Below, piece after piece: positions 12,879-48,528 of a stretch of 53,485 nt of DNA. The position numbers and the translations under genes are program-made. The stretch comes from a virus (Duplodnaviria > Caudoviricetes). The notes under the pieces are model-generated. The model searched no databases and was not told where the DNA came from. It worked only from the letters and a program-made list of their open reading frames with translations. The stretch spans positions 1-53,485 of IMG/VR virus record IMGVR_UViG_3300023314_000002; one strand, written 5' to 3'. The stretch's first letter is position 1. Every line of letters begins with the position of its first letter.

Positions 12879-12885
12879 TTATGTA

Positions 12886-14400
12886 TTAGTTTAAAGTTCC
12901 GAAATTAAATCCTGCTTCCGCAGTTGTTGAAGAAATGCGGTCAAATCCGCTTCTTTTATATCTAAAGAATGTTTCTAAACGGTCGGGATTCGTTGTGCTT
13001 AAATTTACTGTTGTTGATGCCTGTGAAAAATCGGAATCTACAATTAATGCGCGCTGAACCAACTCCAGGAACATATTAAATATTACCTGTTTCCATTGCT
13101 TTGGCTTAACCACTTTATCAACTGATACAATATCTGTATCGCGAGCAATCGCATGGTCAACAACGTTAATTTGTTCTAATAAATAGTAAGTATATCTTAC
13201 ATTAAAATCAAGAACAAGATTACGACAATATCTAAATTGTGGCGGATTTTCACCAATTGGATGATAAGTAGTTACAAAGTCTTCTACTTGATAAAAACCT
13301 GCTGACAAACTAACCGTTGAACATCCTTTTTTTACAAAAGCATCACGGTTTTCATAAATATTCATCGCACCAATATTAATAGGCGTTGGCATGTCAGGAT
13401 ATTTCCTGCCAGCAACATCTAAATGCGGTGTATCTTGGTTTACTCTTGCAAATAAAACAGCCATGTTAGCTGCTGCTTCAAAATGATAGCCTTTGCTTAA
13501 TGGTGCAGGACAAATAGCAATTGTTACTTGTTCTTTTCTTGCATCAGTTACGGTTGCTTCTTCTTCCAAAACAGAACCTGTCAACGCAATAAAAGGCTTC
13601 ATAACAATTCCGCGATAACGTCCTGTTGGATTATCTTGGTCTGGTCTTCCGTTGAAACTTTCTAAAGTTTGCATAACAGCAGACTGAACACCATAACCGT
13701 TAACAACTATTGTTATCCATTCGTTTCCAAATTGATCTAAAGCTGATTGAACGCTTGGTGTTCCTGCACCACTTTGTGTGCTTCCAATAGTATATGTAAT
13801 ACCTAAATCGTCAGTAGCTGTATCAACAGAAACATTAGTTCCGTCAGCCGTTAAGCCTTTCCATTTAGTAGTAAGAATAGCTTTGTAAGAATCATCTGTA
13901 GCAATTACAGGTGATGCTAAAGTATTATTTACTGCATCGTAAATCTTAGCAGTAATTTCAGATGTTGAGTCGCCAATTTCTAAATTAATATCGTAAAAAT
14001 TACCATCTACACCATCTCTTCCACTTATGAAAACTCGGTGTGTTCCATTTTTTGTAACTACACCTGTTGGTGTAATTGTCAAAACTTTTGCCGTTGCTCC
14101 ATCTGGTGTTATCTGAGGATAAATAACAACAGGAATGCCTCCAACTCCATCACTTGACACAGGCAAAACAATACGTGACATCAAATGAATAGGAGAACCA
14201 TAACCATATAAATCACCTGCTTGTTTAGAAGTAGTAATTTGTTTGCCTGTAATGTCTAAATTCGTTTGATTTGCTGTATTTGCTTCGCCAATGATTGCGA
14301 TTTTTTGCGGTAGATTTGGTGAAACTTCTCTAAAGTCGCCTTTAGTTATCTTGTAGCCAACGACTCTTGAAATTAATTCTGTACCTACTGCAAAGCTCAT
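12886..14400 (-). CDS. Tail sheath protein, Mu gpL-like
   Basis: PQKIAIIG, YGYGSPIHLM, LTTKWKG, VTTYHP and NPDRL motifs; ATG at 14400 preferred. Confidence 0.92.
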   Translation of the reverse strand: MSFAVGTELISRVVGYKITKGDFREVSPNLPQKIAIIGEANTANQTNLDITGKQITTSKQAGDLYGYGSPIHLMSRIVLPVSSDGVGGIPVVIYPQITPDGATAKVLTITPTGVVTKNGTHRVFISGRDGVDGNFYDINLEIGDSTSEITAKIYDAVNNTLASPVIATDDSYKAILTTKWKGLTADGTNVSVDTATDDLGITYTIGSTQSGAGTPSVQSALDQFGNEWITIVVNGYGVQSAVMQTLESFNGRPDQDNPTGRYRGIVMKPFIALTGSVLEEEATVTDARKEQVTIAICPAPLSKGYHFEAAANMAVLFARVNQDTPHLDVAGRKYPDMPTPINIGAMNIYENRDAFVKKGCSTVSLSAGFYQVEDFVTTYHPIGENPPQFRYCRNLVLDFNVRYTYYLLEQINVVDHAIARDTDIVSVDKVVKPKQWKQVIFNMFLELVQRALIVDSDFSQASTTVNLSTTNPDRLETFFRYKRSGFDRISSTTAEAGFNFGTLN

Positions 14401-14407
14401 AATGGAT

Positions 14408-14492
14408 ATTATTGGAAGCAAATATGAAAGTAAATTTCACTTACTTAAAATAATGTTGGTCTTTTCTTGGTTTTTTTGTTATGTTTGTAGAA
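14408..14492. promoter_or_regulatory. 85-bp direct repeat copy 2, probable bidirectional promoter
   Basis: 83/85 identical to 1014..1098; sits between the divergent sheath gene and glycosyltransferase operon. Confidence 0.8.
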
Positions 14493-15139
14493 TGAAAATA
14501 GGCGTTATAATTCCCGATCGTGGTGATAGACCAGAATTTATGAAGAATTGCTTACGAATGTTAGCATCACAAACAATTAAACCTGCCATAATTGAAGTAA
14601 TTAACGACCTACCTTTAAGCGAGGAAAAGGATATTACTTTACGTTATCGAATTGGTTACGAAAAATTAAGAAACAAAGGAATAGATGTAATAGCTTTAAT
14701 TGAAAATGATGATTGGTATGCACCTGAATATCTTGAAGTAATGTATAATAAATGGTTAGAGCTTGGGAAACCTGAATTGCTTGGTCAATCATATACTATT
14801 TACTACCATATAAAAGAACGTGCTTTTTTTACAATGAACCACCCTGAACGTTCAAGCGCAATGAATACTTTTATTAAACCTGACTTAAATTTTAGTTGGT
14901 GTGTTGATAACGATCCGTACACAGATTTACATTTATGGTTACGGAGTGGATTAAAAGGTGAAATATTTACACCAAAATCGCATATTTGTTTAGGAATTAA
15001 ACATGGTACAGGTCTTTGCGGTGGTGTAAACCATGTTGATGATATGCACCGATTTACAAATAGAGATTCAAATATGACTTTTTTAAATCAAGTTATGGAT
15101 TCGCAAAGTTTTAATTTTTACTCAAAATACTTTAAATGA
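14492..15139 (+). CDS. Glycosyltransferase, GT-A fold (GT2-like)
   Basis: IGVIIPDRGDR start and IENDDWY motif; true start probably ATG 14492, since the upstream extension is the repeat. Confidence 0.8.
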   Translation: MKIGVIIPDRGDRPEFMKNCLRMLASQTIKPAIIEVINDLPLSEEKDITLRYRIGYEKLRNKGIDVIALIENDDWYAPEYLEVMYNKWLELGKPELLGQSYTIYYHIKERAFFTMNHPERSSAMNTFIKPDLNFSWCVDNDPYTDLHLWLRSGLKGEIFTPKSHICLGIKHGTGLCGGVNHVDDMHRFTNRDSNMTFLNQVMDSQSFNFYSKYFK

Positions 15140-15834
15140 AAATATCACTAATACACCCATCGCGCGGACGTGCTGAAAAAGCAAAAGCCACTTATGATAA
15201 TTGGATGCAAAAAGCATCTGGTGAAATCGAGATTGAATACATATTATCATTAGATTTAGATGATAATTATGATGAATACAAGAGAGTATTTGGTGAACAT
15301 TATAATTGTGTTTTAGCTTTTAATAAAAATTTAGTTGAAGCTGCAAACGTTGGTGTTTCCTATTCACATGGAGATTTAATAATTTTAATTTCAGATGACT
15401 TTGAATGTTTTGATTTATGGGATGCGACCTTAAAAAACTTTTTAGTAGGCAAAAAAGATTTCGTTCTAAAAACTTTTGATGGTATTCAAGATTGGATAGT
15501 AACACTACCGATAATGGATAGAGTTTACTACAAAAAACAAGGCTACTTATACTATCCTGAATATCATCACATGTTCTGCGATACAGACCTTACACATAAA
15601 TCGGAGTTGCAAGGAAAATTAATTATCAGAAATGATTTACTGTTTAAGCATAATCATTACTCTGTTGGCGGTTGCAAAAAAGATGCTATAAATATTAAAG
15701 CAGATGCTACTTGCGCAAAAGGTGAATCATTATATTTACAACGTGTGAAAAATAATTTTGGTTTAACTGAAAATACCTGTTCATTAAGCGATAACGCAAA
15801 TTCACATATTAATTGGTTAAAAAATAAACTATGA
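15136..15834 (+). CDS. Glycosyltransferase, GT2-like
   Basis: ISLIHPSRGR, ISDDF and FCDTD motifs. Confidence 0.82.
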   Translation: MKISLIHPSRGRAEKAKATYDNWMQKASGEIEIEYILSLDLDDNYDEYKRVFGEHYNCVLAFNKNLVEAANVGVSYSHGDLIILISDDFECFDLWDATLKNFLVGKKDFVLKTFDGIQDWIVTLPIMDRVYYKKQGYLYYPEYHHMFCDTDLTHKSELQGKLIIRNDLLFKHNHYSVGGCKKDAINIKADATCAKGESLYLQRVKNNFGLTENTCSLSDNANSHINWLKNKL

Positions 15835-16403
15835 AATTATCTATTTTAATACTGACTATTGAAAAAAGGAAACATTTTTTGAATGATTTACTAAATCAAC
15901 TTACTGAACAAGCAAAAGACGAATTAAACAATACAGTTGAAATTATTATAAATAGTGATGAAAACCTAAGTATCGGTTGTAAAAGAAACAATCTTTTGGA
16001 AAGCGCAAAAGGAGAATATCTTTGTTTTTTTGATGACGATGATTTACCAAGCAAAGATTATATTAGCACACTATTAGAAGCCATTAAATCTAATCCTGAC
16101 TGCGTATCTTTGCGTGGAATAATGACAACAAATGGCTCAAATCCTGAAATATTTGAACATTCGATTAGATATAGCGAATATAAAACAAATGAAAATGCAA
16201 TTTATCCTGAAGTTAAATACGAAAGATTCCCGAATCATATTTCTTGTTTAAAATCAAGTATAGCAAAGTTATTCAAATTCCCAGAATGCAATCATGGAGA
16301 AGATACAGATTTTGCTACGCAGATTTATAAATTAGGATTGCTTAAAAATGAATATTATACCGACAAAATTCTCTACTACTATAAATACGTAACCAATAAA
16401 TGA
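15831..16403 (+). CDS. Glycosyltransferase family 2
   Basis: LSILILT, KRN..L..AKGEYLCFFDDDD and GEDTDF motifs. Confidence 0.9.
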   Translation: MKLSILILTIEKRKHFLNDLLNQLTEQAKDELNNTVEIIINSDENLSIGCKRNNLLESAKGEYLCFFDDDDLPSKDYISTLLEAIKSNPDCVSLRGIMTTNGSNPEIFEHSIRYSEYKTNENAIYPEVKYERFPNHISCLKSSIAKLFKFPECNHGEDTDFATQIYKLGLLKNEYYTDKILYYYKYVTNK

Positions 16404-17101
16404 AATTACAACTACCAACGGTAACACTTGTTTGCATTGATTGCGTTAATTCAGAACGCGCTAAAGATGTTTTGGAAATTTGCAAAAGCAAAGTTGATTT
16501 TGGTGACGTAAAATTACTTACAAGCCAAGCTATTTACTATAAGCATAGTGTAGAAATTCAACCATTAGAATCTTTGGTAATGTATTCTGTTTTTTGCCTT
16601 ACTGAATTATACAAATACATAAACACAACTCATTTGTTAATAGTACAACGTGACGGATTTATACTTAATCCGCAATCGTTTAGAATAGAATGGTTGGATT
16701 TAGATTATATTGCACCGTTATTTATTCAGTACGATAAAGTTGGTAGCGGTGGTTTTTCATTGCGTTCTAAACGCTTAATGGAATATTCAGCACACGTTTT
16801 ACCAAAGTGGGACGGCACTTTAGAACACGCAGAATACTTACAAGTTGGATTAGCCTATTATGAAGATGGTGTGCTGTGTTTTGATAAGAAGTTTAATCAC
16901 TTTAATTTTGCAACAAAAGAACAAGCGTGTGGCTTTGCGCAAGGTGGCAATCGTAATCCTGAATATTTTTGCGAACTGCCGTTTGGCTTCCACAGAACGT
17001 GGCAACAAATAGATTTTGAAACAGGCAAAGTAGATAGTAGCGATTTAAGTAAAGACTTAACACAAAGTTACGATAGTGAAATTGAAAAATTAATACAATG
17101 A
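16400..17101 (+). CDS. DUF5672-family putative glycosyltransferase
   Basis: LIVQRDGF, DYIAP, VGSGGFSLRSK, ED and PFGFH motifs. Confidence 0.8.
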   Translation: MKLQLPTVTLVCIDCVNSERAKDVLEICKSKVDFGDVKLLTSQAIYYKHSVEIQPLESLVMYSVFCLTELYKYINTTHLLIVQRDGFILNPQSFRIEWLDLDYIAPLFIQYDKVGSGGFSLRSKRLMEYSAHVLPKWDGTLEHAEYLQVGLAYYEDGVLCFDKKFNHFNFATKEQACGFAQGGNRNPEYFCELPFGFHRTWQQIDFETGKVDSSDLSKDLTQSYDSEIEKLIQ

Positions 17102-17946
17102 TATATTTAGAAAAAAATGACATTCATGCAACGATTTGTACATGGATTTATTGTCACTTTTGGCAAATGTGGAGTGCAGAAAAACAAGGTAAAAGTTGTT
17201 ATATAAATTGGCACGGTGGCGAAAATAATCACCTAATAGATTTAAATGACAGCCAAAAGTTTGCGGAAATACCAAATATGTATGACTGGTATTTTGTGCA
17301 ACCAAATAAAAAAGAAACAGCTACTGAAATTTGGACTTGGGAGCATTGGCAAGATACTTCACCTGTACCATTTATGGCGCAACCATTATCAGTAATTAAA
17401 GACTATTATAAAAAGAATCTTATTTTTAACGATATTGTAAATAAAAGAGGACAGGAATTAGTAGAGAAATACGGAATAGATTTTAGTAAAATAATCGGTA
17501 TTTCATGGCGTGGAACTGATAATGTAACAGATGGTAGGATAACAATGCCTATTGAAAAATACTATAAGTATATTGATATGGCTTTAGAGCAAATTCCTGA
17601 TGCAAGAATTATGTGTACTGCTGAAGAAACAGAAGTATTGCAACCGTTATTAGATAAATATCCACAGGCATTTAATATAGATGAGTTTATTAGTTCACCA
17701 AAAGGAAGTTTGCAAAATCCTGAAAGAAATTCAAACGTATCTGGTTTTGAGCGTGGTATGCAACCGGTACTTATGGTTTGGTTATTTTCTAAATGTGCAT
17801 GGTATATAAAAAATCGCAGTTCAACAGGTGCGGTTGCAAGTTGGCTAAGTGATGGACAAATAGTGTGTTTGGCACACGCAGAAACATTGAACTATGATAA
17901 ATTAGATAACGAAGTTGAAATTAACGGTAAAAGATTTCCTTTATGA
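17098..17946 (+). CDS. Fucosyltransferase-like GT-B enzyme (NodZ/GT23-like)
   Basis: WYFVQP, IGISWRGTD (cf. GVHxRxTD) and LFSKC....RSS motifs. Confidence 0.7.
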   Translation: MIYLEKNDIHATICTWIYCHFWQMWSAEKQGKSCYINWHGGENNHLIDLNDSQKFAEIPNMYDWYFVQPNKKETATEIWTWEHWQDTSPVPFMAQPLSVIKDYYKKNLIFNDIVNKRGQELVEKYGIDFSKIIGISWRGTDNVTDGRITMPIEKYYKYIDMALEQIPDARIMCTAEETEVLQPLLDKYPQAFNIDEFISSPKGSLQNPERNSNVSGFERGMQPVLMVWLFSKCAWYIKNRSSTGAVASWLSDGQIVCLAHAETLNYDKLDNEVEINGKRFPL

Positions 17947-18506
17947 CATTACAAGAAATATATGAAGATTTAAAAACAAAAGGTTTTGAAACTGACAAAG
18001 GCTCGGTTCACAGCTATATACCCGTTTATGAAGAAATACTTGCACCATATAGAAATACTGCTAAATTCGTGCTTGAAATAGGTGTTTTTAAAGGAAATTC
18101 GTTAAGAATGTGGGAAAAATACTTTAATTGTCCTGTTTTTGGTGTGGATTGCGATGAAACTCCACACGATGGAATGGCGGATTTGCGTGAAATGATAGCA
18201 AGTGGTGAGCATTTAATTAAGATTTTTGATGCATCAAATGAAAATGAAGTAAAAGAAAATTTAGGAAACATAAAATTTGATGTAATCATAGAGGATGCAA
18301 ACCACCAACTATCACAACAATTAGAATTATATCGCATTTATAAAGAGTATTTAACTCCAAATGGCATATATATTATTGAAGATGTAGAGGATATTGACGA
18401 AAACAGAGGCGTTTTTAAGAATATAGATAGCGAAAAAACAGTAACAATTTTAGATAGAAGAAATATCAAAGACAGGTTCGATGATGTATTAATAATTATA
18501 AAATAA
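17943..18506 (+). CDS. Class I SAM-dependent methyltransferase, sugar O-methyltransferase-like
   Basis: TDKGSVHSY, VLEIGV, FDVIIEDANH and GIYIIEDV motifs. Confidence 0.85.
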   Translation: MTLQEIYEDLKTKGFETDKGSVHSYIPVYEEILAPYRNTAKFVLEIGVFKGNSLRMWEKYFNCPVFGVDCDETPHDGMADLREMIASGEHLIKIFDASNENEVKENLGNIKFDVIIEDANHQLSQQLELYRIYKEYLTPNGIYIIEDVEDIDENRGVFKNIDSEKTVTILDRRNIKDRFDDVLIIIK

Positions 18507-18511
18507 ATAGC

Positions 18512-19096
18512 ATGTACTCACAAAATCAAGAAGAAAATTACATAACAGAATACTTTTCAGGTCGCACCGGAAAATTTATAGATATTGGTGCTTATGATGT
18601 GTTCAGACTGTCAAATACACGTAAACTTTTTGAGTTAGGTTGGCGTGGAATTTTGGTCGAACCGGACCCAACAAACTATAAATCTATTTCAGATTTTTAT
18701 AAAGACGAACCAAGAATCGAAGTTTTAAATTTTGCAGTTGGAAACTCAAATGAAGATTTGGAATTTCTGTCAAGTGGTGGTGATGCTGTTTCTACTTCGG
18801 TTGTTGAACATGCAGAAAAATGGAAAGGTGCTGGTGTGAAATTTGAAAAGGTAATAGTAAAACAAATGCACGTTGCAGAATTATTAGAATTACATAAAGA
18901 TGCTATTTTTCTAAGTATTGATACAGAATCAACCAACATGCTTGTATTTAATTCTATTCCAGACAACGTATTTGAACAAATAGAAATGTTATGTATAGAA
19001 CACGACAATTGTATTGTTGAAATTGTAAGCAAATTAGAACCTTTTGGATTAAAAACAAAATACCTGAATGCAGAGAATATAATTTTAGCAAAATGA
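18512..19096 (+). CDS. FkbM-family methyltransferase
   Basis: YSQNQEE, FIDIGAYD...SNT, GILVEP and FLSIDTE motifs. Confidence 0.9.
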   Translation: MYSQNQEENYITEYFSGRTGKFIDIGAYDVFRLSNTRKLFELGWRGILVEPDPTNYKSISDFYKDEPRIEVLNFAVGNSNEDLEFLSSGGDAVSTSVVEHAEKWKGAGVKFEKVIVKQMHVAELLELHKDAIFLSIDTESTNMLVFNSIPDNVFEQIEMLCIEHDNCIVEIVSKLEPFGLKTKYLNAENIILAK

Positions 19097-19836
19097 AAAT
19101 TTGCGGAATTTACAATGCATTTGATTCAATAGAATTATTAAAAGGCTCTATGGAATGCCTTAAAAATGATGTAGATTTATTTATAATTATCTATCAAACT
19201 GAATCTAACTATGGTGAAAAATACAACCCTTTGGATGATTTCGATTTTACGAAATATACAAACACAATATGTCACCTTTACACACCAATTAGAGAACGTG
19301 GCGGAGCTTGGAATGAAACAAGAAAAAGGAATATAGGATTAGACATCGCACGTGAACACGGCTGCACACACTTCTTGCACCTTGATTGTGACGAATATTA
19401 CCAAAACTTTGCTGAAGCAAAACAAAAATTCATTGACAGCAAAGCAAAAGGCTCTGTTTGCAAAATACTAACCTACTTTAAAAAGCCAACACTTCGTTTG
19501 GAAAGTCCTGACAATTATTATGTTCCGTTTATTCACAAACTTTACACAAATACAAATTCAGGCTATCAAAATCAAATTATATTTCCATTTTATGCAGATC
19601 CAACACGACTAATTAATGAAGAAAATGTTGTTTTGCTTGACGTTTTCATGCATCATTTTAGTTGGATTAGAAACGACATAGAAAGAAAGGTGCGAAATTC
19701 AAGCGCAAAATCAAACATTGAAAGAAGTAATTTACTTGAAGATTACTATTCTGAAGAAACAAAAGCCGGAACATTCTTAGTTGATTATAACCAAAAACTG
19801 ATTGAAGTAGAAAACATATTCAACTTTAATTTCTGA
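19093..19836 (+). CDS. Glycosyltransferase, GT-A fold
   Basis: KRNIGL, HFLHLDCDEYY (DxD) and MHHFSWIR motifs. Confidence 0.78.
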   Translation: MKICGIYNAFDSIELLKGSMECLKNDVDLFIIIYQTESNYGEKYNPLDDFDFTKYTNTICHLYTPIRERGGAWNETRKRNIGLDIAREHGCTHFLHLDCDEYYQNFAEAKQKFIDSKAKGSVCKILTYFKKPTLRLESPDNYYVPFIHKLYTNTNSGYQNQIIFPFYADPTRLINEENVVLLDVFMHHFSWIRNDIERKVRNSSAKSNIERSNLLEDYYSEETKAGTFLVDYNQKLIEVENIFNFNF

Positions 19837-25501: not shown

Positions 25502-25717
25502 TTATTTTATTTTAATTTGAGACTCAGCTTTTACGCATTTAAAATTGTAGTTATTTTTCCAATAATTCCATGACTCACCGCTTCCGCTTATAAAATTTGA
25601 TATACTTTTACTTCTTGTCCTGGCAAAAGTATCTATTACTACATAAGGACTTAAACCTGTTGGATGGTCATAATTTACTATCACCCAACCATCTCTTGAG
25701 TCTGTTATCTTATCCAT
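25502..25717 (-). CDS. Hypothetical protein
   Basis: Start probably MDKITD, overlapping the upstream stop. Confidence 0.6.
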   Translation of the reverse strand: MDKITDSRDGWVIVNYDHPTGLSPYVVIDTFARTRSKSISNFISGSGESWNYWKNNYNFKCVKAESQIKIK

Positions 25718-26000
25718 TGCTTTGCTGTTTAGATTGTTTGAAAATTTCGTAAAGTTGTTCTGTTGTTTTAACAAATGTAATATCCTTACCTTCATCGTCT
25801 CTCAAATACCATTCATTTGCATTCGGAAATCTTGGAGTTGCATTTTTATATAACCATCTACCAAATTCGATAGATGTATGCTGCTCTCTTTGTGCTGCAT
25901 ATATTTCCATTACTTCAATTACATAAGGTTTTACTTTTAATGACAGAAAATGAGGCATTTCATCTTCCATTTGTGCTACTATTTGCGCTGCTGTTTTCAT
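25710..26000 (-). CDS. Hypothetical protein
   Basis: ORF coupled (ATGA) to the upstream gene. Confidence 0.7.
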   Translation of the reverse strand: MKTAAQIVAQMEDEMPHFLSLKVKPYVIEVMEIYAAQREQHTSIEFGRWLYKNATPRFPNANEWYLRDDEGKDITFVKTTEQLYEIFKQSKQQSNG

Positions 26001-27088
26001 AATATAGCTTTTGTTTGATTATCTATTTTTAGTGTTAATTCTGCGAGCTTTTCGATTAAAAAACATCTTGTATTCGTTATCAAATCTAAATCCTTATTTT
26101 TTAAAAGAGATTCATCAAAATCTTGATACATTACTTCAATCAAATCAGCTATTTTTTCATCTTGGTAATCTTTACTTTGCTCTTTCACTACTTCTTTTTC
26201 CTTAAATATTGGTTCAAGCCAAATATTTAACACTCCTGATTCCTTTAATTCTTTTTCGAAATCAGATCCAACTTTTATCTCGGGAAGCTTCCTTGATTGA
26301 CTTCTTTTTGGTCGTATTGTATTTATTATGTCAACTACCAAAGATGTATAATTTGCATATTTTTCTTTCATTTTCCACCCGACAATTTCCTCTTCCTGAA
26401 GCTCAAACATTGGCTTTTCTGGAATGGATTCTGAAAATCTTTCACTCCAATTTTCCACTTCTTCTTGTAAGTCTTTAAATTTCTCGGTAAGCTCATTTAT
26501 TGATTGCATCTTCTTCTCCATTTTCAATTCTTCTACACCTTTTCTAATCTCTTTTTTTAATTCTTTCCTTGACTCCGTTCGATCGTCATCTTTCAATATC
26601 CATTTCTTGAATTGGTCAAAGGTTATTTCTGTGAAATCATCGTGGTTTGGTGCTTTTTCTTGAAAAGATGCTTTTGGCGAATTAAATGAGCCACAAACAT
26701 TTTCAGAATAAACAAAACCTGATGTAGTAAAATAATGTTCATAGTTATATTTTTTATTAAACCATTCATTAATAACTTTCGCTGTTTCGGATGTTCTTTT
26801 AATACACCATTTTTTTGGCAAAGACTCTTTCACATTCAGCACCTCTCTTAGCTCTTCTATGGTCTTTAGTTCGGTGTAACCTTGTTTTTCTAAATATTCT
26901 TTCCCCCAACTCATATCACCATATGTTAATAGGATATAAATTCCATTGTGTTCAGTTAAATAATGAAATATACCTACCACTTCATTGTACGTAAATTTTT
27001 TGTCAGCTGCATTATTGATAATTTGTTGAATTTGTTGCAAATTTTCATTTGTTGGTACTATGAACCATTTTTTGTTTTGATTTTCCAT
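25997..27088 (-). CDS. Hypothetical modular protein with duplicated KKW-x-I domain and coiled coil
   Basis: KKWFIVPTNEN..ELKTIEELREVL and PKKWCIKRTSET..EITFDQFKKWIL. Confidence 0.75.
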   Translation of the reverse strand: MENQNKKWFIVPTNENLQQIQQIINNAADKKFTYNEVVGIFHYLTEHNGIYILLTYGDMSWGKEYLEKQGYTELKTIEELREVLNVKESLPKKWCIKRTSETAKVINEWFNKKYNYEHYFTTSGFVYSENVCGSFNSPKASFQEKAPNHDDFTEITFDQFKKWILKDDDRTESRKELKKEIRKGVEELKMEKKMQSINELTEKFKDLQEEVENWSERFSESIPEKPMFELQEEEIVGWKMKEKYANYTSLVVDIINTIRPKRSQSRKLPEIKVGSDFEKELKESGVLNIWLEPIFKEKEVVKEQSKDYQDEKIADLIEVMYQDFDESLLKNKDLDLITNTRCFLIEKLAELTLKIDNQTKAIL

Positions 27089-37870: not shown

Positions 37871-38692
37871 TTATGCTCGAATTGCTTCATAAATTGTTTT
37901 CTTTCCGGAAATTACATCTTCTAAACTTTTGTCTGGAATATCAGCAAAATCAACTTCACAAATAATGCTACAACTTGGCATTATTTCTTTTGTCATTCTT
38001 CCAGCTTTAGGATTTAATTCATCTAAGAAAGTTCCATTAATACAACTATATCCTACTTTTCGTTCAATTTCAGCCATTCTTTTAAATACAAAAGGAAAGT
38101 CAATCCGTATTTTGTTCCAATAACCTTTTCCTCCTTTTACACAACCTATACAGTTGTTGTTATTGTAACCAAGTTTATACATTTCTGGAAGTTCAATCCC
38201 AGCATTTAAAAGCAATCCAGCACATTGATTCTTATTTATACCTTTTTCTATTAATGGAAATAACGGATTTGTATAAGAATATTGCTGACCATGTCTGATT
38301 GCTCTGTTTATTTCTTTTTTCTCAAATTCAAACCCCCAAACCTGATTGTTAATTACATTCTCATTAAAAAGAGATAATCCATGCAATGCCTCTAATTCAT
38401 ATCTAACTTCTTTCTTTAAAATACGTGTACATGGTGCGCCTTGTGGTGTATTTACTGCGCCTGTTTTTTCAATTACATCAAATTGGTCATTTGCTTCTTT
38501 GCTTTTTATCAATTTAATTTTCTTGCCATACCAATTTTCACAATCAGATTTAAACCTTTCGTTGTCTGAATGTGCTGTGTCAATTCCAATATAATATAAT
38601 TCTACATTTTCATACATTTCTAACGCCATTTTACATGCAACAGCAGAAGTAACTCCAGCAGACCACCAAGCAACAATAAACCCATCTTTCAT
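37871..38692 (-). CDS. PP-loop / PAPS-reductase-like adenine nucleotide alpha-hydrolase
   Basis: WWSAGVTSAVA, PCTRILKK, FPLIE, MYKLGY.NNNCIGCVKGG.GYW and terminal C...C motifs. Confidence 0.8.
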   Translation of the reverse strand: MKDGFIVAWWSAGVTSAVACKMALEMYENVELYYIGIDTAHSDNERFKSDCENWYGKKIKLIKSKEANDQFDVIEKTGAVNTPQGAPCTRILKKEVRYELEALHGLSLFNENVINNQVWGFEFEKKEINRAIRHGQQYSYTNPLFPLIEKGINKNQCAGLLLNAGIELPEMYKLGYNNNNCIGCVKGGKGYWNKIRIDFPFVFKRMAEIERKVGYSCINGTFLDELNPKAGRMTKEIMPSCSIICEVDFADIPDKSLEDVISGKKTIYEAIRA

Positions 38693-40949: not shown

Positions 40950-41192
40950 TTAAACTAAAATCTTTGGCGTTAAATAATCGTCCATGATCGAGCGTGTCGC
41001 ATCTCTTACCTTTAACTCAATTTCAGCTTTTCTAGACTCCGGAACTTTGATTTGAATCTCTAATAATTCCGTTTTCTCTCCATATTTTAAAGGTCTTCCT
41101 GCTCCAGGACGGTAACCACCTCTATTGTCTTTTTTCTTCATTATATCCTGCATTTGCTGTTTTAAAGTCCATATTTCTGATTCTTTTTCCAT
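40950..41192 (-). CDS. Small DNA-binding protein with AT-hook-like RGG..GAGRP motif
   Basis: RGGYRPGAGRP followed by an RHH-like segment. Confidence 0.65.
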   Translation of the reverse strand: MEKESEIWTLKQQMQDIMKKKDNRGGYRPGAGRPLKYGEKTELLEIQIKVPESRKAEIELKVRDATRSIMDDYLTPKILV

Positions 41193-41204: not shown

Positions 41205-41912
41205 TTAATAACAATATATATTTTTGCAAGGAGGAAACCAAGATTTCAGCCATACTTTGTGTTCTGATTTTATTTCAGAGGCATGAACATTTTTATAAAT
41301 ATTTCTTAATTTACTTACTACGTTTCTATATCTATCAATATTATTATCAATATCAAAAGACCATTCGGCAACAAGCTTTTTTAATGGAAAATCTAATCTT
41401 TCAAGTATTTCCATTTCTGCGCCCTCTATATCCATTTTACAGCAAGAATCAGAGTTAAGCACTTCTTTAAAATTAACGCAATCTACTTTATAATGTGAAG
41501 ATTTCCAATTCTTTACTATTGAGTTTCTCCATGTGTTGCCATTTATATTTATGTAAAATTCCGTTTCTTTTCTATCATCAAATACTACTGCTTTATTTAT
41601 TATATTAGCATTTAGTCCATTTAACTTTAGATTCATTTCTATCAAATTACAATGTTCTTTGCATGGCTCATAAACATCAACTGTTGAACCTAAACTCGCA
41701 ACCAAAACAGTAAAAGCACCTATATTTCCGCCTAAATCAATCCAATGCTCATTTGAATCTATTTTAAAATACTTTTTTTGGTAAACATTTCTTTCAACCA
41801 CCTCCATAATCGTCTTAATATCAGATGTATTTGGTCTGTAATAAAACTTTAAGTCTGTTCTTTCGCTTTTATAAGTTGGCAATGATGTTGAAAATAAATC
41901 TTTATATGTCAT
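41205..41912 (-). CDS. FkbM-family methyltransferase
   Basis: WIDLGGNIGAF, VYEP and KMDIEGAE motifs; ATGA-coupled to the dioxygenase. Confidence 0.9.
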   Translation of the reverse strand: MTYKDLFSTSLPTYKSERTDLKFYYRPNTSDIKTIMEVVERNVYQKKYFKIDSNEHWIDLGGNIGAFTVLVASLGSTVDVYEPCKEHCNLIEMNLKLNGLNANIINKAVVFDDRKETEFYININGNTWRNSIVKNWKSSHYKVDCVNFKEVLNSDSCCKMDIEGAEMEILERLDFPLKKLVAEWSFDIDNNIDRYRNVVSKLRNIYKNVHASEIKSEHKVWLKSWFPPCKNIYCY

Positions 41913-42796
41913 AATAGTTTCATTTGTCTATCACTATTAATATTCTTAATTTCTTTCTCATATTGTCTATTTCTGGCAATAATAACTTCATCTTCCAAAT
42001 AATTACAACGCCACATTTCAGACAATGAATAATAAACAATAGAATATCTATTTGAATATTCTGTATTATATTTTATTGGAGTCACTCCATGTAATATATC
42101 TTGACCATCAAATATAATACAAGTCCGATCTGCAACCTCAAAACAAATATCATATTCTGGACAACATAAATAGCCTCCATCGCAATCATCTTTAAATACT
42201 ACCATATTTGATAAAACACCTTTAAAGTTTCCAGAATCAAAATGATATTTTAAGGAATTATTTTTATTTACAATACCTGATGTAAAAGGAGTGTTTCCCA
42301 TTATCCAATCTTCTTTAATCTTTAATCTTGTTTTTTTAATATGATTATTGTAAATGTCCGGAAAGTGTTTTCTATATAACTTACTTAATTCTAATCCATA
42401 GGACATTAATTCTTGTTGTGCCGGATTGTTATTTATCCCAATTGCTGACTCTGAACAAAAATCAGCATATAAAGAACCTATTCTTCTTGGTCTATATCCA
42501 AATACCGCACATGATCCGTCTTTTATATTTCCTGTTCCTATTCTATCAGTACTACCTTTCATATGCTTATGAACTGAACTTTTGGTTCTTAATACAGGAT
42601 TATATTTTATTTTTTTGACAAGTTCTAATAATTCAACGTTTGGATTTACTTTACAATATAGTATTTTGGGAATGCCATTTTCATAAACAATACAATCACA
42701 ATCTATGAATACTTTACAGTCTTCTTTTTTAGCTGCCTTATATTGGTAATCACTTAAATTTATCCTTTTCTTTTTTGCTATATCTATTCTCTTCAT
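41909..42796 (-). CDS. TET/JBP-like 2OG-Fe(II) dioxygenase
   Basis: FTSGIVNKN, HFDSGN (HxD), GGYL..PEY, LHGVTP and RYSIVYY motifs. Confidence 0.85.
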   Translation of the reverse strand: MKRIDIAKKKRINLSDYQYKAAKKEDCKVFIDCDCIVYENGIPKILYCKVNPNVELLELVKKIKYNPVLRTKSSVHKHMKGSTDRIGTGNIKDGSCAVFGYRPRRIGSLYADFCSESAIGINNNPAQQELMSYGLELSKLYRKHFPDIYNNHIKKTRLKIKEDWIMGNTPFTSGIVNKNNSLKYHFDSGNFKGVLSNMVVFKDDCDGGYLCCPEYDICFEVADRTCIIFDGQDILHGVTPIKYNTEYSNRYSIVYYSLSEMWRCNYLEDEVIIARNRQYEKEIKNINSDRQMKLL

Positions 42797-42944
42797 AAAA
42801 TTCTAAAATTTTCAAAAATGTCAAAGCATTATCTTTTTTTATGCATAATTCGTTTGAAATTACTTGCATTCTTTTATAAATACTTTCATAATCTTCATTA
42901 TTGAAAATTAACACAATTTGTCTTATATTCTTACTTTTCGGCAT
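42750..42944 (-). CDS. Small hypothetical protein leading the TET/FkbM cassette
   Basis: 64 aa; overlaps the dioxygenase start. Confidence 0.6.
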   Translation of the reverse strand: MPKSKNIRQIVLIFNNEDYESIYKRMQVISNELCIKKDNALTFLKILEFYEENRYSKKEKDKFK

Positions 42945-42975: not shown

Positions 42976-43245
42976 TTAATCCATTGTATCTAATTGGCTT
43001 CCAAATTTTTCAAGAAACTTTATTGCTAAATTTTCATCTTCTTGCATATTCTTCTGAGAAGTAAATACTAACCTGTTGGGTAGATAATTATGCAAGTGTT
43101 CATTGTTATAAATAACTATTTGGTGACCATTTTCGAGAAATATTAAATATTCTCTATTCATTACACTCACTAAAGTAGTAGTAAAGTTACTTTCATCGTC
43201 ATGAGAAAATATAAAATTTCCTTTTGTTTTAATAATGTTTTTCAT
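42976..43245 (-). CDS. Hypothetical protein
   Basis: 89-aa ORF. Confidence 0.65.
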   Translation of the reverse strand: MKNIIKTKGNFIFSHDDESNFTTTLVSVMNREYLIFLENGHQIVIYNNEHLHNYLPNRLVFTSQKNMQEDENLAIKFLEKFGSQLDTMD

Positions 43246-45066: not shown

Positions 45067-47523
45067 TTATTTTTTTGGAATCTTTCTTTCTTTCCTTGCG
45101 TCCAATTCAGGCTTACTAAGCATATTTTTAGTAACAGATTTCATATCTATTTTACCTGCTTCGTATTTATTTATCAATTCATTATCTGATAAGCCTTTTT
45201 GTTTAGCATACGGTTTGTTATCTGCCATATTTATTTCTTCACCCCAAATTTTTCTAATTTCTAAATTATTCTTTTTTTCGAGTTCATTGATTTGCTTTTG
45301 AGCTTTTTCAATCTCGTTTTCATTTCTATCCAATTTGTCAACTATTTCCTGTTGAATCTTAATTGGAGGCAACGGTATCGTTATATCTAAAATTTGTTTT
45401 ATAGAGATGTGTTTTACTGTAGTATATGGCGTATGTTCCCATATAATGTTTAATGGCTTTCGTATAATATGAAAGATGTATTCTTTTAGGCAATCCTTGT
45501 AATCATGTATTTTACATATCCTTTGGTTTAGCAACGCATTACCACCCTGCCAAAGAACATGATTAAAATCACCATCCATTCCAATAATTAAATCACCATT
45601 TTTAACAATGTATTCGGGTTTAAATTCACCATTGAATTTAGTTTCAGTTGAATTGGTTTTAATATCTCTAATCCTAATTATTGGATACCCATTTGTAGGG
45701 GAAAAATTATTTGAAGCAAATGGATAACCAGATAAAACCTTAACTACATCTCTTAATTTCACTAACTTGAATTTTACATTATCATAGTTGTATAATTCTT
45801 TATACTGACTTCCAATTAAGGTGTAGTCGTTATTTATTACGTCGTTTATGCTTATTATGCTAAATCCAATACTTAAAGCTTCATTTTGTTCTGTTTCAGG
45901 ATTTCTATTAGAAAGATATTTTTCTAAATCATTTCCACCATCTAACTTTCTTCTATTGTTATCAAGACTATATCCATCATTTTTTACATCAAAGTTCCAA
46001 TAGTGGTCTTTAGTTGATCTTTTATTGACTTTCTTTAGATATATTATGTTTGTTTTTACGCCAGTATATGGTAAGAAAACACCTTGCGGTAAGGAAATTA
46101 TACTTTGAAGTTCACACTTTTCTAATAAATATTTTCTTGTTTTTTTTAAATCTTTTCTGAATAAAAAACCTTCAGGTACTACAATCGCAATTCTACCGTT
46201 TTCAGATGTCTTATCAACAGCTTTTATACAATGTTGCACACATATACTATCTCCATTTTTTGTTGGTATATCATATAAGCTACCAAATTCTGTAGTCTGT
46301 GAATAAGGCATATTAGTTATTACAATATCATATTTGCCGTCTATTGGGTCTTCTAAGCTATTTTTCATTTGAATATTACTATGACCATCGCCAGCCAAAA
46401 TCATATTCATCTTTGTTATCCTTGCGGTGTTTGTAATTTCGTTTCCAAAAATAGTATTCTCCCTTAGCTGTTTTAATGTTCTTTCATTTCTTGGCATAGT
46501 ATTATATATGTGCCTGAAACTTTCTATTAATAAACCGCCTGTTCCACAAAAGGGGTCGTAAATTTTTTCACCAATCTGAGGGTTTACAAGTTTGACCATC
46601 ATTTTTACGATATGTCTTGGTGTAAAATATTCGCCTAAGTCATTACCAGTTGCTGTTGTCGCTCTTAAAAAATATTCAAATGCATCACCTTTAATATCAG
46701 AATTTATATCTGTAAGAATCAATGGGTCTAATTTATCAATGATACTTTTTAATACCCTACCGTCTTTTATTTGAAGTTTACTAAAAATATTCTCATCATT
46801 GTAATGTTTACTTATTTCAGGTAAAACAATAGCATTGATATAATTCAAAATCTCATCTGATGGCATTCCTTTATAAAAATCCCATTTGTACTTCCTATTA
46901 AATTCAGGTGCATCTTTTAGGTTATCAATTTCACTAAATAATTTAAGAAATAATATATTTGAAAATTCACTAAATCTTTCAATCCCTGCCCTTAATCCTT
47001 CAACCCTTAAAGTATTATTTGCTTCTTCAAATATATTTATTAGTTCTTGCCTTGAAAGTTGTATCTGTTTGGGTATTGTATCTAATTCATTTGTACCAAC
47101 CTCTAAATACTTTATTGCAATTAATTCTCTTATAAGTTCATCAACTTCCTCGCCATTTAATAATAATGGTTTAAGGGTTCCTGTATGTAGGCTTTTGTAA
47201 TAAACTCCATCAGTTGCAAATACTATAGGTATATTTAAGGTTTCAGCATATAGCTTTCCTTGATGTAAAGCAGAATCAATATTAGATCCTTTTTTCTTCG
47301 TTTCAATTATTATTAATGGAGTGTCTTTCCCTTTTTCGTATAGAACATAATCAGGTCTTTTGCCTTTTAGTTTCTTTTTTTCGGTAACTGTTTTCGGTTG
47401 TTCAAAATAGACATTTTGATTTTTTCCATTAAATTCCCACCCCAAGTTTTTCAACCTTTCATCTACCTGTATTCTAACATCTGTTTCTAAAGGAAAATTT
47501 ACCATGCTATCATTAGTTTGCAA
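45067..47523 (-). CDS. Single-chain restriction-modification enzyme (Type IIG-like: HsdR_N nuclease, N6-adenine MTase, one HsdS-type TRD)
   Basis: RPDYVL..IIETKK; GEYFTPRH, YDPFCGTGG, NMPY; ALLNQR and IPLPP..IQQEIV motifs. Confidence 0.9.
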   Translation of the reverse strand: MQTNDSMVNFPLETDVRIQVDERLKNLGWEFNGKNQNVYFEQPKTVTEKKKLKGKRPDYVLYEKGKDTPLIIIETKKKGSNIDSALHQGKLYAETLNIPIVFATDGVYYKSLHTGTLKPLLLNGEEVDELIRELIAIKYLEVGTNELDTIPKQIQLSRQELINIFEEANNTLRVEGLRAGIERFSEFSNILFLKLFSEIDNLKDAPEFNRKYKWDFYKGMPSDEILNYINAIVLPEISKHYNDENIFSKLQIKDGRVLKSIIDKLDPLILTDINSDIKGDAFEYFLRATTATGNDLGEYFTPRHIVKMMVKLVNPQIGEKIYDPFCGTGGLLIESFRHIYNTMPRNERTLKQLRENTIFGNEITNTARITKMNMILAGDGHSNIQMKNSLEDPIDGKYDIVITNMPYSQTTEFGSLYDIPTKNGDSICVQHCIKAVDKTSENGRIAIVVPEGFLFRKDLKKTRKYLLEKCELQSIISLPQGVFLPYTGVKTNIIYLKKVNKRSTKDHYWNFDVKNDGYSLDNNRRKLDGGNDLEKYLSNRNPETEQNEALSIGFSIISINDVINNDYTLIGSQYKELYNYDNVKFKLVKLRDVVKVLSGYPFASNNFSPTNGYPIIRIRDIKTNSTETKFNGEFKPEYIVKNGDLIIGMDGDFNHVLWQGGNALLNQRICKIHDYKDCLKEYIFHIIRKPLNIIWEHTPYTTVKHISIKQILDITIPLPPIKIQQEIVDKLDRNENEIEKAQKQINELEKKNNLEIRKIWGEEINMADNKPYAKQKGLSDNELINKYEAGKIDMKSVTKNMLSKPELDARKERKIPKK

Positions 47524-48466
47524 TCAGTTGTTTGTAAGTCAATCTACAATTCATCGTGTTATGTAGCGAAAAATCAAACATTTCACTTGTACTTATTTTT
47601 CTTGCGTTGTATCTGTATGCAAATTCGTGGCAGTATGTTTGTAAATGTTTCGGACTAACTTGATGATATATTCCAAAGATACCTCTTTTTAGTAAACTCC
47701 AAAAGCCTTCGATAGAATTAGTATGAAAATCACCATTAACATATTCGTGTCTTTTGTGATTTACAACTACATGAGCGTAATTTTTAGCTAATCCTTTGTA
47801 TGCTAACCATTCATCTGTAACAACGATAGAACCACTTGTTACCATGCTGTGTATGATTGGTTTAAGTGTAGTTGCTTTAGTGTCTGCAACTACATAAGTA
47901 TGTACACTTCCATCTTGTACCATGCCAAAAACAGGTGTTTTATCTTTAACGCTTCTGCCTTGACTTTCTTCAACTTTTTTATTTGCGTGACGGTTTTTAT
48001 TCTTTCCACCTACAAATGATTCATCACATTGGATAACTCCATCTAATTTAACGCTAATATCTTTAGTTTTAAAAGAGTTTCTAATTCTGCCTAACATAAA
48101 CCAAGCCGTTTTCTGTGTAACGCCTAAATCTCTTGAAAGTTGGTGTGAACTGATACCTTTTTTATGAGTAGAGAATATGTAAATAGCTATAAACCATTTA
48201 CGTAATGAAATATGAGAACCCTCAAACATAGTTCCAACAGTAACTGTAAATCTTTGTTTGCAAAGTTTTGTACTGCATTTATACATACCTCTAAATTCAC
48301 CATTTTGTTTTAATTGATAAGGATTGATACCACCACATTGTGGACAAACAGGTGAACCATTCCATCTAACGTTTTCTAAATATTCTCTACATGCCGTATC
48401 ATTTGGTAATACTTCAAGCATTTGAGCGAATGATTTAAACTGATTGATTTGTGCGTAATTGTTCAT
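47513..48466 (-). CDS. IS1595-family (ISXO2-like) DDE transposase
   Basis: CPQCG..YKC zinc ribbon, GISSHQL..LGVTQKTAW, DESFVGG, TDEW, HTNSIEGFWSLLKR and EFAYRYN motifs; ATG 48466 preferred. Confidence 0.96.
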   Translation of the reverse strand: MNNYAQINQFKSFAQMLEVLPNDTACREYLENVRWNGSPVCPQCGGINPYQLKQNGEFRGMYKCSTKLCKQRFTVTVGTMFEGSHISLRKWFIAIYIFSTHKKGISSHQLSRDLGVTQKTAWFMLGRIRNSFKTKDISVKLDGVIQCDESFVGGKNKNRHANKKVEESQGRSVKDKTPVFGMVQDGSVHTYVVADTKATTLKPIIHSMVTSGSIVVTDEWLAYKGLAKNYAHVVVNHKRHEYVNGDFHTNSIEGFWSLLKRGIFGIYHQVSPKHLQTYCHEFAYRYNARKISTSEMFDFSLHNTMNCRLTYKQLIAN

Positions 48467-48528
48467 GTGTTTGTAATTGATACACAAATATAAGTATAAT
48501 TATTGGTACATGCAAGTATATCGTTACC

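Follow-up and report, generated by a model that had tools for sequence, protein, structure and literature searches.

A candidate thymine hydroxylation and O-methylation cassette with a CTD-only ParB-like partner in a 53.5 kb phage genome

The window analysed here, a stretch of 53,485 nucleotides, is a complete viral genome (53.5 kb) with direct terminal repeats. An earlier note on it described a TET/JBP-like dioxygenase coupled to an FkbM methyltransferase and recognized no C5-cytosine methyltransferase (C5-MTase) anywhere in the genome. The question that this locus raises is which base such a dioxygenase oxidizes when no C5-MTase is encoded beside it, and what the FkbM enzyme does to the product.

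Gene layout and genome setting

Positions 41205-42944 are filled exactly by three minus-strand open reading frames in the ORF listing (Table 1). The 64-aa ORF and the dioxygenase ORF overlap by 47 nt, and the dioxygenase stop and the FkbM start overlap by 4 nt (ATGA); coordinates and overlaps agree with the three overlapping genes (small ORF, dioxygenase, and FkbM) that had been read there earlier. The earlier impression that the module is more AT-rich than the structural genes was also borne out, with a GC content of 27.3% for the module, 35.1% for the structural block (1-14400), and 32.0% genome-wide. This AT-richness is real but modest because the non-structural block (23000-48000) likewise has a low GC content of 29.5%.

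Table 1. Genes of the module and their assignments
Feature	Position	Strand	Assignment and evidence
Mini-ParB, 64 aa	42750..42944	-	ParB-like C-terminal (dimerization) domain only; ParB-partner profile, complex model
TET/JBP-family Fe(II)/2-oxoglutarate dioxygenase (5mYOX), 295 aa	41909..42796	-	PF12851, fold; predicted thymine dioxygenase producing 5hmU
FkbM-family SAM-dependent methyltransferase, TET-linked subfamily, 235 aa	41205..41912	-	PF05050, TIGR01444; predicted 5hmU O-methyltransferase

In this phage, the module lies apart from the terminase genes, which the modules of relatives usually precede. The cultured Prochlorococcus phages P-HS2 and MED4-184 carry the same module, and cyanophage MED4-117 likewise has a module of ParB-like, FkbM, and TET genes; a blastn search of the module region against cultured phages gave no match. 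Genome-wide searches for PF01555, PF02086, PF00303, and PF18724 found none, and a thymidylate-synthase-like enzyme, which was also looked for in the genome, was absent. A PF02384 match is present in the genome, and its linkage to the module was seen in only 1 of 28 relatives. At 45067-47523 the genome also encodes an N6-adenine MTase fusion, a further DNA methyltransferase that the earlier note does not mention.

The dioxygenase, its substrate, and its ParB-like partner

The dioxygenase matched Tet_JBP (PF12851) with 49.2 bits (cut-off 34.9; E 4.4e-13). H185, D187, H236, and R250 were invariant in a 32-sequence alignment and were kept in 158, 159, 159, and 159 of 159 homologues, respectively, which confirms the complete HxD..H..R set noted earlier as Fe(II) ligands and 2-oxoglutarate-binding Arg conserved across homologues. 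The AF2 model (pLDDT 88.4) has a double-stranded beta-helix fold. In a fold search, TET2, CcTet, NgTET1, and CMD1 took ranks 1 to 26, with E values from 5e-11 to 1e-8, and AlkB/FTO ranked next; a CcTet structure with N6-methyladenine DNA (7w5p) was among the matches. Because the top structural matches are TET2, CcTet, NgTET1, and CMD1, the enzyme probably acts on nucleic acid; the grouping with non-nucleic-acid dioxygenases that had been named beforehand as contrary evidence was not observed. When the dioxygenase sequence alone was the query against viral contigs, no relatives came up; an alignment query was needed to recover them. A sequence search of the PDB with both enzymes returned nothing meaningful. 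Databases label the dioxygenase family 'queuine tRNA-ribosyltransferase', a label to which Pfam and NCBIfam give no support.

The enzyme has 28 residues between R70 and F99, where 79 of 79 siblings have 10, and the stretch carrying this 18-residue insertion (residues 71-91) was disordered in the AF2 model. Full-length ParB was found alongside insert lengths of 10 to 28 residues (133 loci), so insert length was rejected as a clean marker of ParB loss and a long insert is an unreliable sign of ParB independence. The enzyme also sits on a long branch (1.02) of the dioxygenase tree, which could reflect adaptation or decay. After R250 there is a 45-residue tail with a helix at 267-294, as seen in the model.

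A search of the complete genome with PF00145 (C5-cytosine methyltransferase) gave no match at E<=1, which upholds the reported absence of a C5-MTase, and only 1 of 28 long relatives had a match above cut-off, leaving 27 of 28 without this enzyme. O'Toole et al. (PNAS 2026, PMC13229309) showed that the ParB-associated TET/JBP enzymes of phages (5mYOX) act on thymine in DNA and turn it into 5-hydroxymethyluracil (5hmU), and that C5-MT co-occurs in only 6% of such 5mYOX pathways. Because thymine is already in DNA, a C5-MTase is unneeded. Of the substrates considered in the earlier note, thymine is thus favoured by the missing C5-MTase, here and in the long relatives, and by the 5hmU-forming activity of the ParB-linked kin; from sequence, the substrate is likely thymine and not 5mC. 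Most of the original observation is explained by these thymine dioxygenases, and the absence of a C5-MTase beside a phage TET enzyme is the norm of the enzyme class rather than an anomaly. The FkbM gene was also considered as a hidden C5-MTase and rejected, the FkbM alignment having no conserved cysteine.

A profile made from 53 full-length ParB-like partners, 196 positions long, matched the 64-aa protein over positions 148-195 (E 7.5e-9). The protein also aligned with the C-terminal domains (CTDs) of ParB-like partners. No remnant of a ParB N-terminal domain was found in six frames, and PF02195 had no match at E<=10 in the genome. Of the nucleotide-binding domain and the CTD of a ParB homologue, the gene adjacent to the dioxygenase encodes the CTD alone. 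The small ORF is therefore what remains of a ParB activator, of which the C-terminal dimerization domain survives, an identity that the earlier note had missed. The TAGT and ParB ideas reportedly originated with Iyer et al. in 2013. Among the best 80 of 251 TET loci, 71 have a ParB-like gene upstream of the dioxygenase. The layout of small ORF, TET, and FkbM recurs, again CTD-only, in four contigs (L081-L084) of a different dioxygenase lineage.

In a complex model, a dimer of the 64-aa protein docked on the dioxygenase with a score of 0.72 versus 0.02 for the best of three controls. The docking site was the C-terminal helix of the dioxygenase, and the modelled interface spans residues 267-286 and takes in the conserved residues E270, R275, R281, E282, and R285. 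Contact agreement between runs was at least 93%, and the pLDDT of the partner was at least 81. In calibration, 58 of 80 solved complexes but 2 of 110 mismatched pairs attained the mark used for this score; the calibration holds only roughly here because the run had three chains and relied on our own alignments. According to PMC13229309, ParB176 activates 5mYOX176 only when it has its nucleotide-binding domain as well as its CTD, and ParB176 was needed only on dsDNA. A CTD-only partner might leave the present dioxygenase weak or inactive on double-stranded DNA.

The FkbM methyltransferase and the proposed pathway

The 235-aa protein scored 27.7 bits against PF05050 (cut-off 22.7) and 57.9 bits against TIGR01444 (cut-off 37.7), and matched phrog_28597 at 4.1e-54. 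Its model (pLDDT 91.6) has a class-I MTase fold, and D59, G61, G65, and E82 were invariant in a 28-sequence FkbM alignment; these residues fit a glycine-rich motif and an acidic residue after strand 2. Sugar methylation is common among FkbM-family enzymes. Foldseek retrieved only generic class-I methyltransferases (TM about 0.45), many of them RNA methyltransferases, and because these matches are generic, the structure gives no pointer to DNA or 5hmU as the substrate. A survey that covered FkbM members of characterized gene clusters lists 29 O-methyltransferases (4 experimental, 25 inferred) and 1 N-methyltransferase (PMC9259500), and because one member N-methylates, O-methylation is a prior for this family and not a rule. 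The subfamily is not rare: 217 cluster representatives match at E<=1e-30, and the viral contig collection holds 299 stretches that match it.

The gene-neighbourhood survey suggested in the earlier note showed that a TET-like gene is adjacent in 79 of 80 FkbM-family viral loci (the best 80 of 299); the sole exception is truncated at the end of the locus. Elsewhere among the best 80 of 251 TET loci, the FkbM slot is taken by the TET-associated glycosyltransferase TAGT (59 loci), a P-loop kinase, the amino-acid:DNA transferase ADDT, or a GT1-like gene. The queried TAGT, kinase, and GT1-like representatives occurred in none of the best 80 of the 299 FkbM loci. Among the best 150 FkbM-family representatives, 23 are long forms; 20 of these were examined, and Tet_JBP was present in 13 at E<=1e-3 and exceeded the Pfam cut-off in 10. 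TET-FkbM fusions in a single polypeptide occur in at least 10 protein clusters, in both domain orders. The idea that the long forms are ParB-FkbM fusions was rejected, as the ParB profile was unmatched in the 13 tested. A TET-TAGT-FkbM triple fusion is also present in the database (P0266), so FkbM and a glycosyltransferase are not always alternatives; in P0266, the substrate of FkbM could be a sugar. Five changes of the FkbM label are needed on the dioxygenase tree, at least two of them forced by starred branches, and the genes in common with the closest FkbM contigs are those of the module only. The three genes are most likely a mobile DNA-hypermodification cassette, and the FkbM subfamily appears to be a dedicated TET partner that is new beyond published work.

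The hydroxylate-then-O-methylate scheme of the earlier note is the best-fitting reading of this slot equivalence, adjacency, and fusion, with the chemistry predicted as follows. The TET/JBP dioxygenase, judging from its family membership and the enzymology of its relatives, would hydroxylate thymine of phage DNA after replication to give 5hmU. FkbM would then move the methyl group of SAM onto the new hydroxyl to give 5-methoxymethyluracil, as suggested by the linkage, the fusions, and usual FkbM chemistry. The methyl cap would play the role of the glycosyl, phosphoryl, and aminoacyl groups in sister cassettes and would block further oxidation to the formyl or carboxyl forms excised by repair enzymes. 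As modelled, the ParB CTD would dock on the C-terminal helix of the dioxygenase, and the 18-residue insertion may offset the loss of the nucleotide-binding domain. By analogy, the benefit would be phage DNA shielded from host nucleases, in keeping with the anti-restriction role proposed in the earlier note.

Taken as a whole, thymine hydroxylation followed by O-methylation with a CTD-only ParB partner is a reading that we favour tentatively, at somewhat under an even chance, and 5-methoxymethyluracil in DNA is the likely product on the strength of the gene content. The literature searched contained no 5-methoxymethyluracil in DNA and described no O-methylated hydroxymethyl pyrimidine linked to phage DNA or 5mYOX; for FkbM with TET in phage DNA modification, it gave only unrelated giant-virus work. 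We hold yet more tentatively the broader proposal that the FkbM subfamily is a dedicated DNA 5hmU O-methyltransferase, that 5-methoxymethyluracil is carried by hundreds of phages, and that docking of the ParB CTD is the minimal activating contact.

It is unlikely that the cassette is partly decayed, with a dioxygenase inactive or weak on double-stranded DNA and genes that are the remnant of a transferred module. The ParB N-terminal domain is missing throughout the genome, 5mYOX176 needs both ParB domains (PMC13229309), the dioxygenase branch is long, and the module stands away from the terminase genes. However, none of the three coupled reading frames is broken, the dioxygenase keeps its catalytic residues, both enzyme models are confident, the CTD-only layout is repeated in four further contigs whose dioxygenases belong to another lineage, the complex model favours binding over its controls, and ParB176 was needed only on dsDNA (PMC13229309). 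A distinctly unlikely reading is that FkbM methylates a further-oxidized product; with 5-carboxyuracil, for example, methylation of the carboxylate would yield a methyl ester. Such a pair would resemble ALKBH8/Trm9 tRNA wobble-uridine modification, which pairs a methyltransferase with a dioxygenase, and the tight linkage and fusions would suit any reaction on the TET product; the slot-mates TAGT and kinase, by contrast, act at the hydroxymethyl stage. The survey counts in PMC9259500, 29 O- and one N-methyltransferase, include no carboxyl methyltransferase.

We consider it quite improbable that FkbM methylates a sugar placed on 5hmU by a glycosyltransferase encoded elsewhere, even though the P0266 triple fusion and the sugar methylation by many FkbM-family enzymes would fit. 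The candidate source is an operon at 14402-19836 with GT2-like genes and DUF5672, which the earlier note had supposed might extend the pathway; it lies 22 kb off on the other strand, between tail-sheath and terminase genes. No TAGT (PF20691) was found among its proteins or in the genome at E<=1, and its own FkbM is unrelated to that of the module by BLASTP. In a genome-wide glycosyltransferase search covering two GT families, TAGT and GT2, neither was above cut-off in any of 14 FkbM-type near-complete genomes (TAGT was found in 10 of 10 TAGT-type genomes as the control), and the queried glycosyltransferase genes adjoin none of the 80 FkbM loci surveyed. With no link to the module found, the operon was rejected as part of the pathway. 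Another suggestion of the earlier note, that the methyltransferase supplies the methylated substrate, would have FkbM act first as an unconventional DNA methyltransferase (at cytosine C5 or an exocyclic nitrogen) and the dioxygenase oxidize that methyl group. The 7w5p match and the one N-methylating FkbM enzyme (PMC9259500) are in keeping with it, but we regard this order as very improbable. C5 methylation has a thiol-based mechanism (PMC8989533), and since inspection of the FkbM-family alignment showed no invariant cysteine, such chemistry by FkbM is unlikely; sister cassettes with the same dioxygenase family work without any methyltransferase (59 TAGT loci), and the ParB-linked relatives oxidize thymine (PMC13229309). 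In giant-virus genomes that encode FkbM-domain MTases, no methylation was attributable to these enzymes (PMC7253447). Least probable of all is action of the pair on RNA or a non-nucleic-acid substrate. The RNA methyltransferases frequent among FkbM fold matches and the tRNA label of the dioxygenase family would suit it, but that label is unsupported in Pfam and NCBIfam, the closest structures to the dioxygenase are DNA-bound TET enzymes, and the genes that commonly flank it are ParB-like, TAGT, ADDT, and terminase genes.

Significance and comparison with known systems

If the favoured reading of thymine hydroxylation and O-methylation is true, the methyl ether of 5hmU would be a natural DNA base new to science, and the enzyme that forms it would have a new activity, in which the side chain of a DNA base is O-methylated from SAM. 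The carriers would be mostly marine or aquatic phages, cultured Prochlorococcus siphoviruses included, and because the module occurs in cultured cyanophages, the proposal is practical to test. It would be relevant to phage-host arms races and to the development of tools with which 5hmU and 5hmC are mapped or written. The ParB-CTD contact would be a mechanism beyond the reach of published work, and a CTD-only ParB would offer a minimal system, provided by nature, in which to study the activation of these dioxygenases by ParB-like proteins. One expectation is also corrected: a phage TET enzyme without a neighbouring C5-methyltransferase is normal.

The cassette shares its dioxygenase superfamily and post-replicative hypermodification with the TET and C5-MTase cassettes that produce 5hmC (Burke et al., PNAS 2021, PMC8256090), but those rely on a co-encoded C5-cytosine methyltransferase, which is absent here and in 27 of 28 long relatives. 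It also resembles the ParB-dependent 5mYOX clade C1 (PMC13229309) in the TET/JBP fold of an enzyme of about 295 aa, the lack of a C5-MTase nearby, the ParB-type gene directly upstream, and the adjacent tailoring enzymes, to which relatives add adjacent terminase genes; a helical extension at the C-terminus may be a further resemblance. The differences from the systems in that paper are the partner, which is a 64-aa CTD alone whereas 5mYOX176 needs both ParB domains; the 18-residue insertion, unlike its subfamily kin, in a region that the paper calls a variable insert; and the tailoring enzyme, here a methyltransferase, for which the main text gives 'O-MT' as a co-occurring domain class with no product.

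As in the base J pathway (JBP1/2 with a glucosyltransferase) and in phage TET-TAGT cassettes, the thymine methyl would be oxidized in DNA and the hydroxyl then capped, and the TET-TAGT cassettes have a dioxygenase of the same subfamily (40-49% identity) in the same gene slot; unlike in either, the predicted cap is a methyl ether in place of a sugar, and no glycosyltransferase is linked to the module. Hypermodification by a 5hmU kinase and an amino-acid:DNA transferase (Lee et al., NAR 2021, PMC8989533) similarly employs modular enzymes on 5hmU DNA, and genes for these enzymes occupy the same slot at L004, L005, L060, L067, and L070. The present genome has neither kinase nor transferase, in contrast to that pathway, and SAM-dependent methyl transfer would skip the phosphorylated intermediate. 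Finally, the methyltransferase resembles the family of FkbM (31-O-demethyl-FK506 O-methyltransferase) in matching PF05050/TIGR01444 above cut-off and in its class-I SAM-binding fold, but differs from other FkbM enzymes as a distinct subfamily that phages encode beside, or fused with, a DNA dioxygenase.

Organization of the module and its genome

The interval 41205–42944 was exactly filled by three minus-strand ORFs, whose overlaps and TET/JBP and FkbM identities agreed with the earlier note. The GC content was 27.3% for the module, 35.1% for the structural block, and 29.5% for the whole non-structural block. The window is a complete viral genome of 53,485 bp with direct terminal repeats. It encodes a tail sheath, from which we infer a myovirus, and its large terminase found its nearest counterparts in Cellulophaga and Flavobacterium phages (~36% identity), suggesting a flavobacterial host.

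Several other ORFs were recorded. Immediately upstream of the 64-aa ORF, an 89-aa ORF showed weak likeness to the ParB C-terminal region (E 0.25) and may be a diverged duplicate or a chance match. The 80-aa ORF, 12 nt downstream of the FkbM gene, had a glycine/arginine-rich motif and no family match; relatives have a small HTH gene at this place, ahead of the terminase. A 273-aa protein weakly resembled PAPS reductase, below the threshold (E 6.4e-4, 20.2 versus 22.5 bits). An 818-aa single chain joined three parts: a nuclease-like HSDR_N region at its N-terminus, a DNA N6-adenine methyltransferase (PF02384, E 1.3e-55), and a specificity domain of Type I; this domain order reads as a putative Type IIG-like restriction-modification enzyme. 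Together with the overlapping transposase gene, it looks like an insertion-sequence-associated acquisition within the phage genome.

Table. Coordinates of the module and of other features in the window
Feature	Position	Strand	Remarks
64-aa ORF (mini-ParB)	42944..42750	-	47-nt overlap with 295-aa ORF
295-aa ORF, TET/JBP dioxygenase	42796..41909	-	4-nt overlap with 235-aa ORF
235-aa ORF, FkbM-family methyltransferase	41912..41205	-	
GT operon	14402-19836	+	two GT2-like, DUF5672, Methyltransf_24, second FkbM, three proteins without family match
89-aa ORF	42976-43245	-	
80-aa ORF	40950-41192	-	
273-aa protein	37871-38692	-	
818-aa protein	in 45067-48487	-	
IS1595-family transposase gene	47513-48487		11-nt overlap with 818-aa gene

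A predicted thymine dioxygenase and its variable partner

As a TET/JBP dioxygenase, the 295-aa protein matched PF12851 at 49.2 bits (cut-off 34.9), and H185, D187, H236, and R250 were invariant in an alignment of 32 sequences and kept in 158–159 of 159 homologues. The AlphaFold model was confident (pLDDT 88.4, pTM 0.84), and its top PDB matches were human TET2, CcTet, NgTET1, and CMD1 (E ~5e-11), with AlkB and FTO ranking behind.

We clustered the ORFs around the dioxygenase in the best 80 of 251 related loci from viral contigs. The conserved order was a ParB-like gene, one variable gene, the dioxygenase, a small HTH protein, and the large terminase; the ParB-like protein (~195 aa, PF02195 on its representative) was present in 71 of the 80. 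The variable slot held a TET-associated glycosyltransferase (TAGT, PF20691) in 59 loci, P-loop kinases in four, a kinase with an amino-acid:DNA transferase (ADDT) and an FAD oxidoreductase in three, a GT1-like gene in two, and an unknown 301-aa protein in four; FkbM occupied it in two loci (L001 and L037) and in the window. The named slot families are all enzymes derivatizing a hydroxymethyl base. Viewed from the FkbM side (best 80 of 299 loci), a TET-like gene directly adjoined FkbM in 79 loci, the remaining one ending at an edge, and a ParB-like gene lay upstream in 69; the queried TAGT, kinase, and GT1-like representatives were absent from all 80.

As the earlier note had remarked, no C5-cytosine methyltransferase was detectable in the complete window genome at E<=1. 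PF00145 scored above its cut-off in one of 28 long, mostly near-complete relatives. According to the available text of O'Toole et al. (PNAS 2026, PMC13229309), ParB-associated phage 5mYOX, the TET/JBP-type 5-methylpyrimidine dioxygenases, are post-replicative thymine dioxygenases producing 5hmU, C5-MT co-occurs with only 6% of mined 5mYOX pathways, and the thymine substrate explains this rarity beside ParB-linked phage TET. Lee et al. (PMC8989533), in the part available, argue likewise for TET_JBP genes adjoining thymidine-hypermodification enzymes. The missing C5-MTase is thus normal for this enzyme class, a puzzle already answered in the available text of these papers, and the dioxygenase is a member of a kind already described in 2026. 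The sole confident C5-cytosine methyltransferase among the 28 relatives (98.1 bits; 25717-26568 of the L137 record, G025) lay in an FkbM-type genome, a lineage that may combine 5mC and thymine chemistry.

A dedicated FkbM methyltransferase and its predicted chemistry

The 235-aa protein belongs to the FkbM family of methyltransferases (PF05050, 27.7 versus 22.7 bits; TIGR01444, 57.9 versus 37.7 bits), and its model (pLDDT 91.6) had a class-I methyltransferase fold. Searching 1.84 billion cluster representatives by profile recovered 217 of its subfamily at E<=1e-30. Among the best 150, 23 exceeded 350 aa; 13 of the 20 examined carried Tet_JBP at E<=1e-3 (10 above the Pfam cut-off), with both domain orders seen, and a family-specific profile confirmed three of the weaker fusions and hinted at four more. 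Two fusions from the same search, a TET-TAGT-FkbM chain (P0266, 715 aa) and a radical-SAM domain joined to the same FkbM subfamily (P0271, 779 aa), hint at more elaborate pathway versions.

On a FastTree phylogeny of 159 dioxygenases, the FkbM label required five changes, at least two of these forced by well-supported branches, and all partner labels together required 15. The window FkbM shared 62–67% identity with those of its four closest FkbM contigs (L081–L084), whereas the dioxygenases of the same loci shared only 24–30% with the window dioxygenase, and the flanks had nothing in common beyond the module. The sequences paint a picture of a probable mobile cassette: a dedicated methyltransferase has repeatedly been joined to thymine dioxygenases, either as a partner gene or within one chain.

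Homologues with 43–44% identity to the FkbM protein occur in the Prochlorococcus phages MED4-184 and P-HS2 and cyanophage MED4-117; no mention of DNA modification was found in the available text of a P-HS2 paper (PMC7852597). In MED4-184 the homologue directly adjoins a TET-like gene. There, a gene annotated 'queuine tRNA-ribosyltransferase' matched Tet_JBP (E 3.4e-6) and an upstream 'DNA methylase' matched ParB_N (E 6.4e-5), both below cut-off. Public annotations attach these two labels to TET-like phage genes and to the ParB-like partner (L161, NC_020847.1 15790-17914; phrog_6059); they look wrong, since Pfam points to Tet_JBP and ParB_N, and such doubtful labels have propagated into many records of actinophages and cyanophages.

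According to the available text of PMC9259500 and PMC9811515, a survey of FkbM members from characterized gene clusters counted 29 that methylate oxygen (four by experiment, 25 by inference) and one that methylates nitrogen. Given this prior and the slot equivalence, the simplest reading is that FkbM would place a methyl group on the 5hmU hydroxyl, yielding 5-methoxymethyluracil. The earlier note had proposed hydroxylation then O-methylation, and for thymine this remains the best-supported reading of the sequences; its variant, in which the methyltransferase supplies the methyl group first, is opposed by the lack of an invariant cysteine in a 28-sequence FkbM alignment and by TAGT-type sister cassettes without any methyltransferase. 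Methylation of a sugar on 5hmU is not supported either: TAGT and GT2 were above cut-off in none of 14 FkbM-type near-complete genomes, with TAGT in 10 of 10 TAGT-type controls, and the window genome has no TAGT or ADDT. The P0266 triple fusion complicates this argument, because it implies that TAGT and FkbM coexist in some lineages. A fold search with the FkbM model did not reveal the substrate.

The suggested extension of the pathway by the distant glycosyltransferase operon likewise found no support, as nothing ties the operon to the module. Its eight genes lie between the tail-sheath and terminase genes, with minus-strand genes on both sides; its FkbM was unrelated to that of the module by BLASTP (E 2.2), and PHROGs places its two GT genes under 'moron, auxiliary metabolic gene and host takeover'. 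We take it for an auxiliary cassette that would build a glycan.

The reduced ParB partner and comparison with described systems

A ParB-like profile built from 53 full-length partners matched the 64-aa protein at positions 148–195 of 196 (E 7.5e-9). Across all frames of the genome, the same profile detected no trace of the N-terminal domain, and PF02195 had no match there at E<=10. The partner therefore corresponds to the dimerization domain at the C terminus (CTD) alone. The small-ORF, TET, FkbM layout recurred in L081–L084, whose small ORFs matched the same region (E 6.8e-6 to 0.048).

The predicted complex of the dioxygenase with two 64-aa copies scored 0.72 (best of three controls, 0.02), at least 93% of contacts were common to the runs, and partner pLDDT was at least 81. 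Among 80 solved complexes 58 attained such a mark, as did two of 110 mismatched pairs, a calibration that holds only roughly here because of the job's own alignments and three chains. A sequence search of the PDB found no similar solved complex. The modelled interface was mainly the dioxygenase C-terminal helix 267–286, with E270, R275, R281, E282, and R285 conserved; the model supports binding of the dioxygenase by the 64-aa protein. We consider the complete scheme, from thymine through 5hmU to 5-methoxymethyluracil with the ParB CTD docked on this helix, slightly short of an even chance, its weakest link being the predicted FkbM chemistry.

The available text of PMC13229309 describes a C-terminal extension as a mark of ParB-dependent enzymes and reports that swapping the dioxygenase 'variable insert' can abolish ParB dependence. 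The R70–F99 spacing was 28 residues in the window dioxygenase, the extra stretch being disordered in the model, 10 in 79 of 79 subfamily siblings, and 33 in the L081–L084 enzymes. A link between a long insert and a reduced ParB is only suggestive, since full-length ParB co-occurs with 10–28-residue inserts in 133 loci.

No O-methylated hydroxymethyl pyrimidine in DNA was described in the literature searched, and 'O-methyltransferases' appear in the available main text of PMC13229309 only as a co-occurring domain class. According to that text, 5mYOX176 needs both domains of ParB176, whereas the window encodes a CTD-only partner. Relative to the described 5mYOX kind, what is new here is the pairing with a methyltransferase, the product predicted for that enzyme, and a ParB reduced to its CTD.
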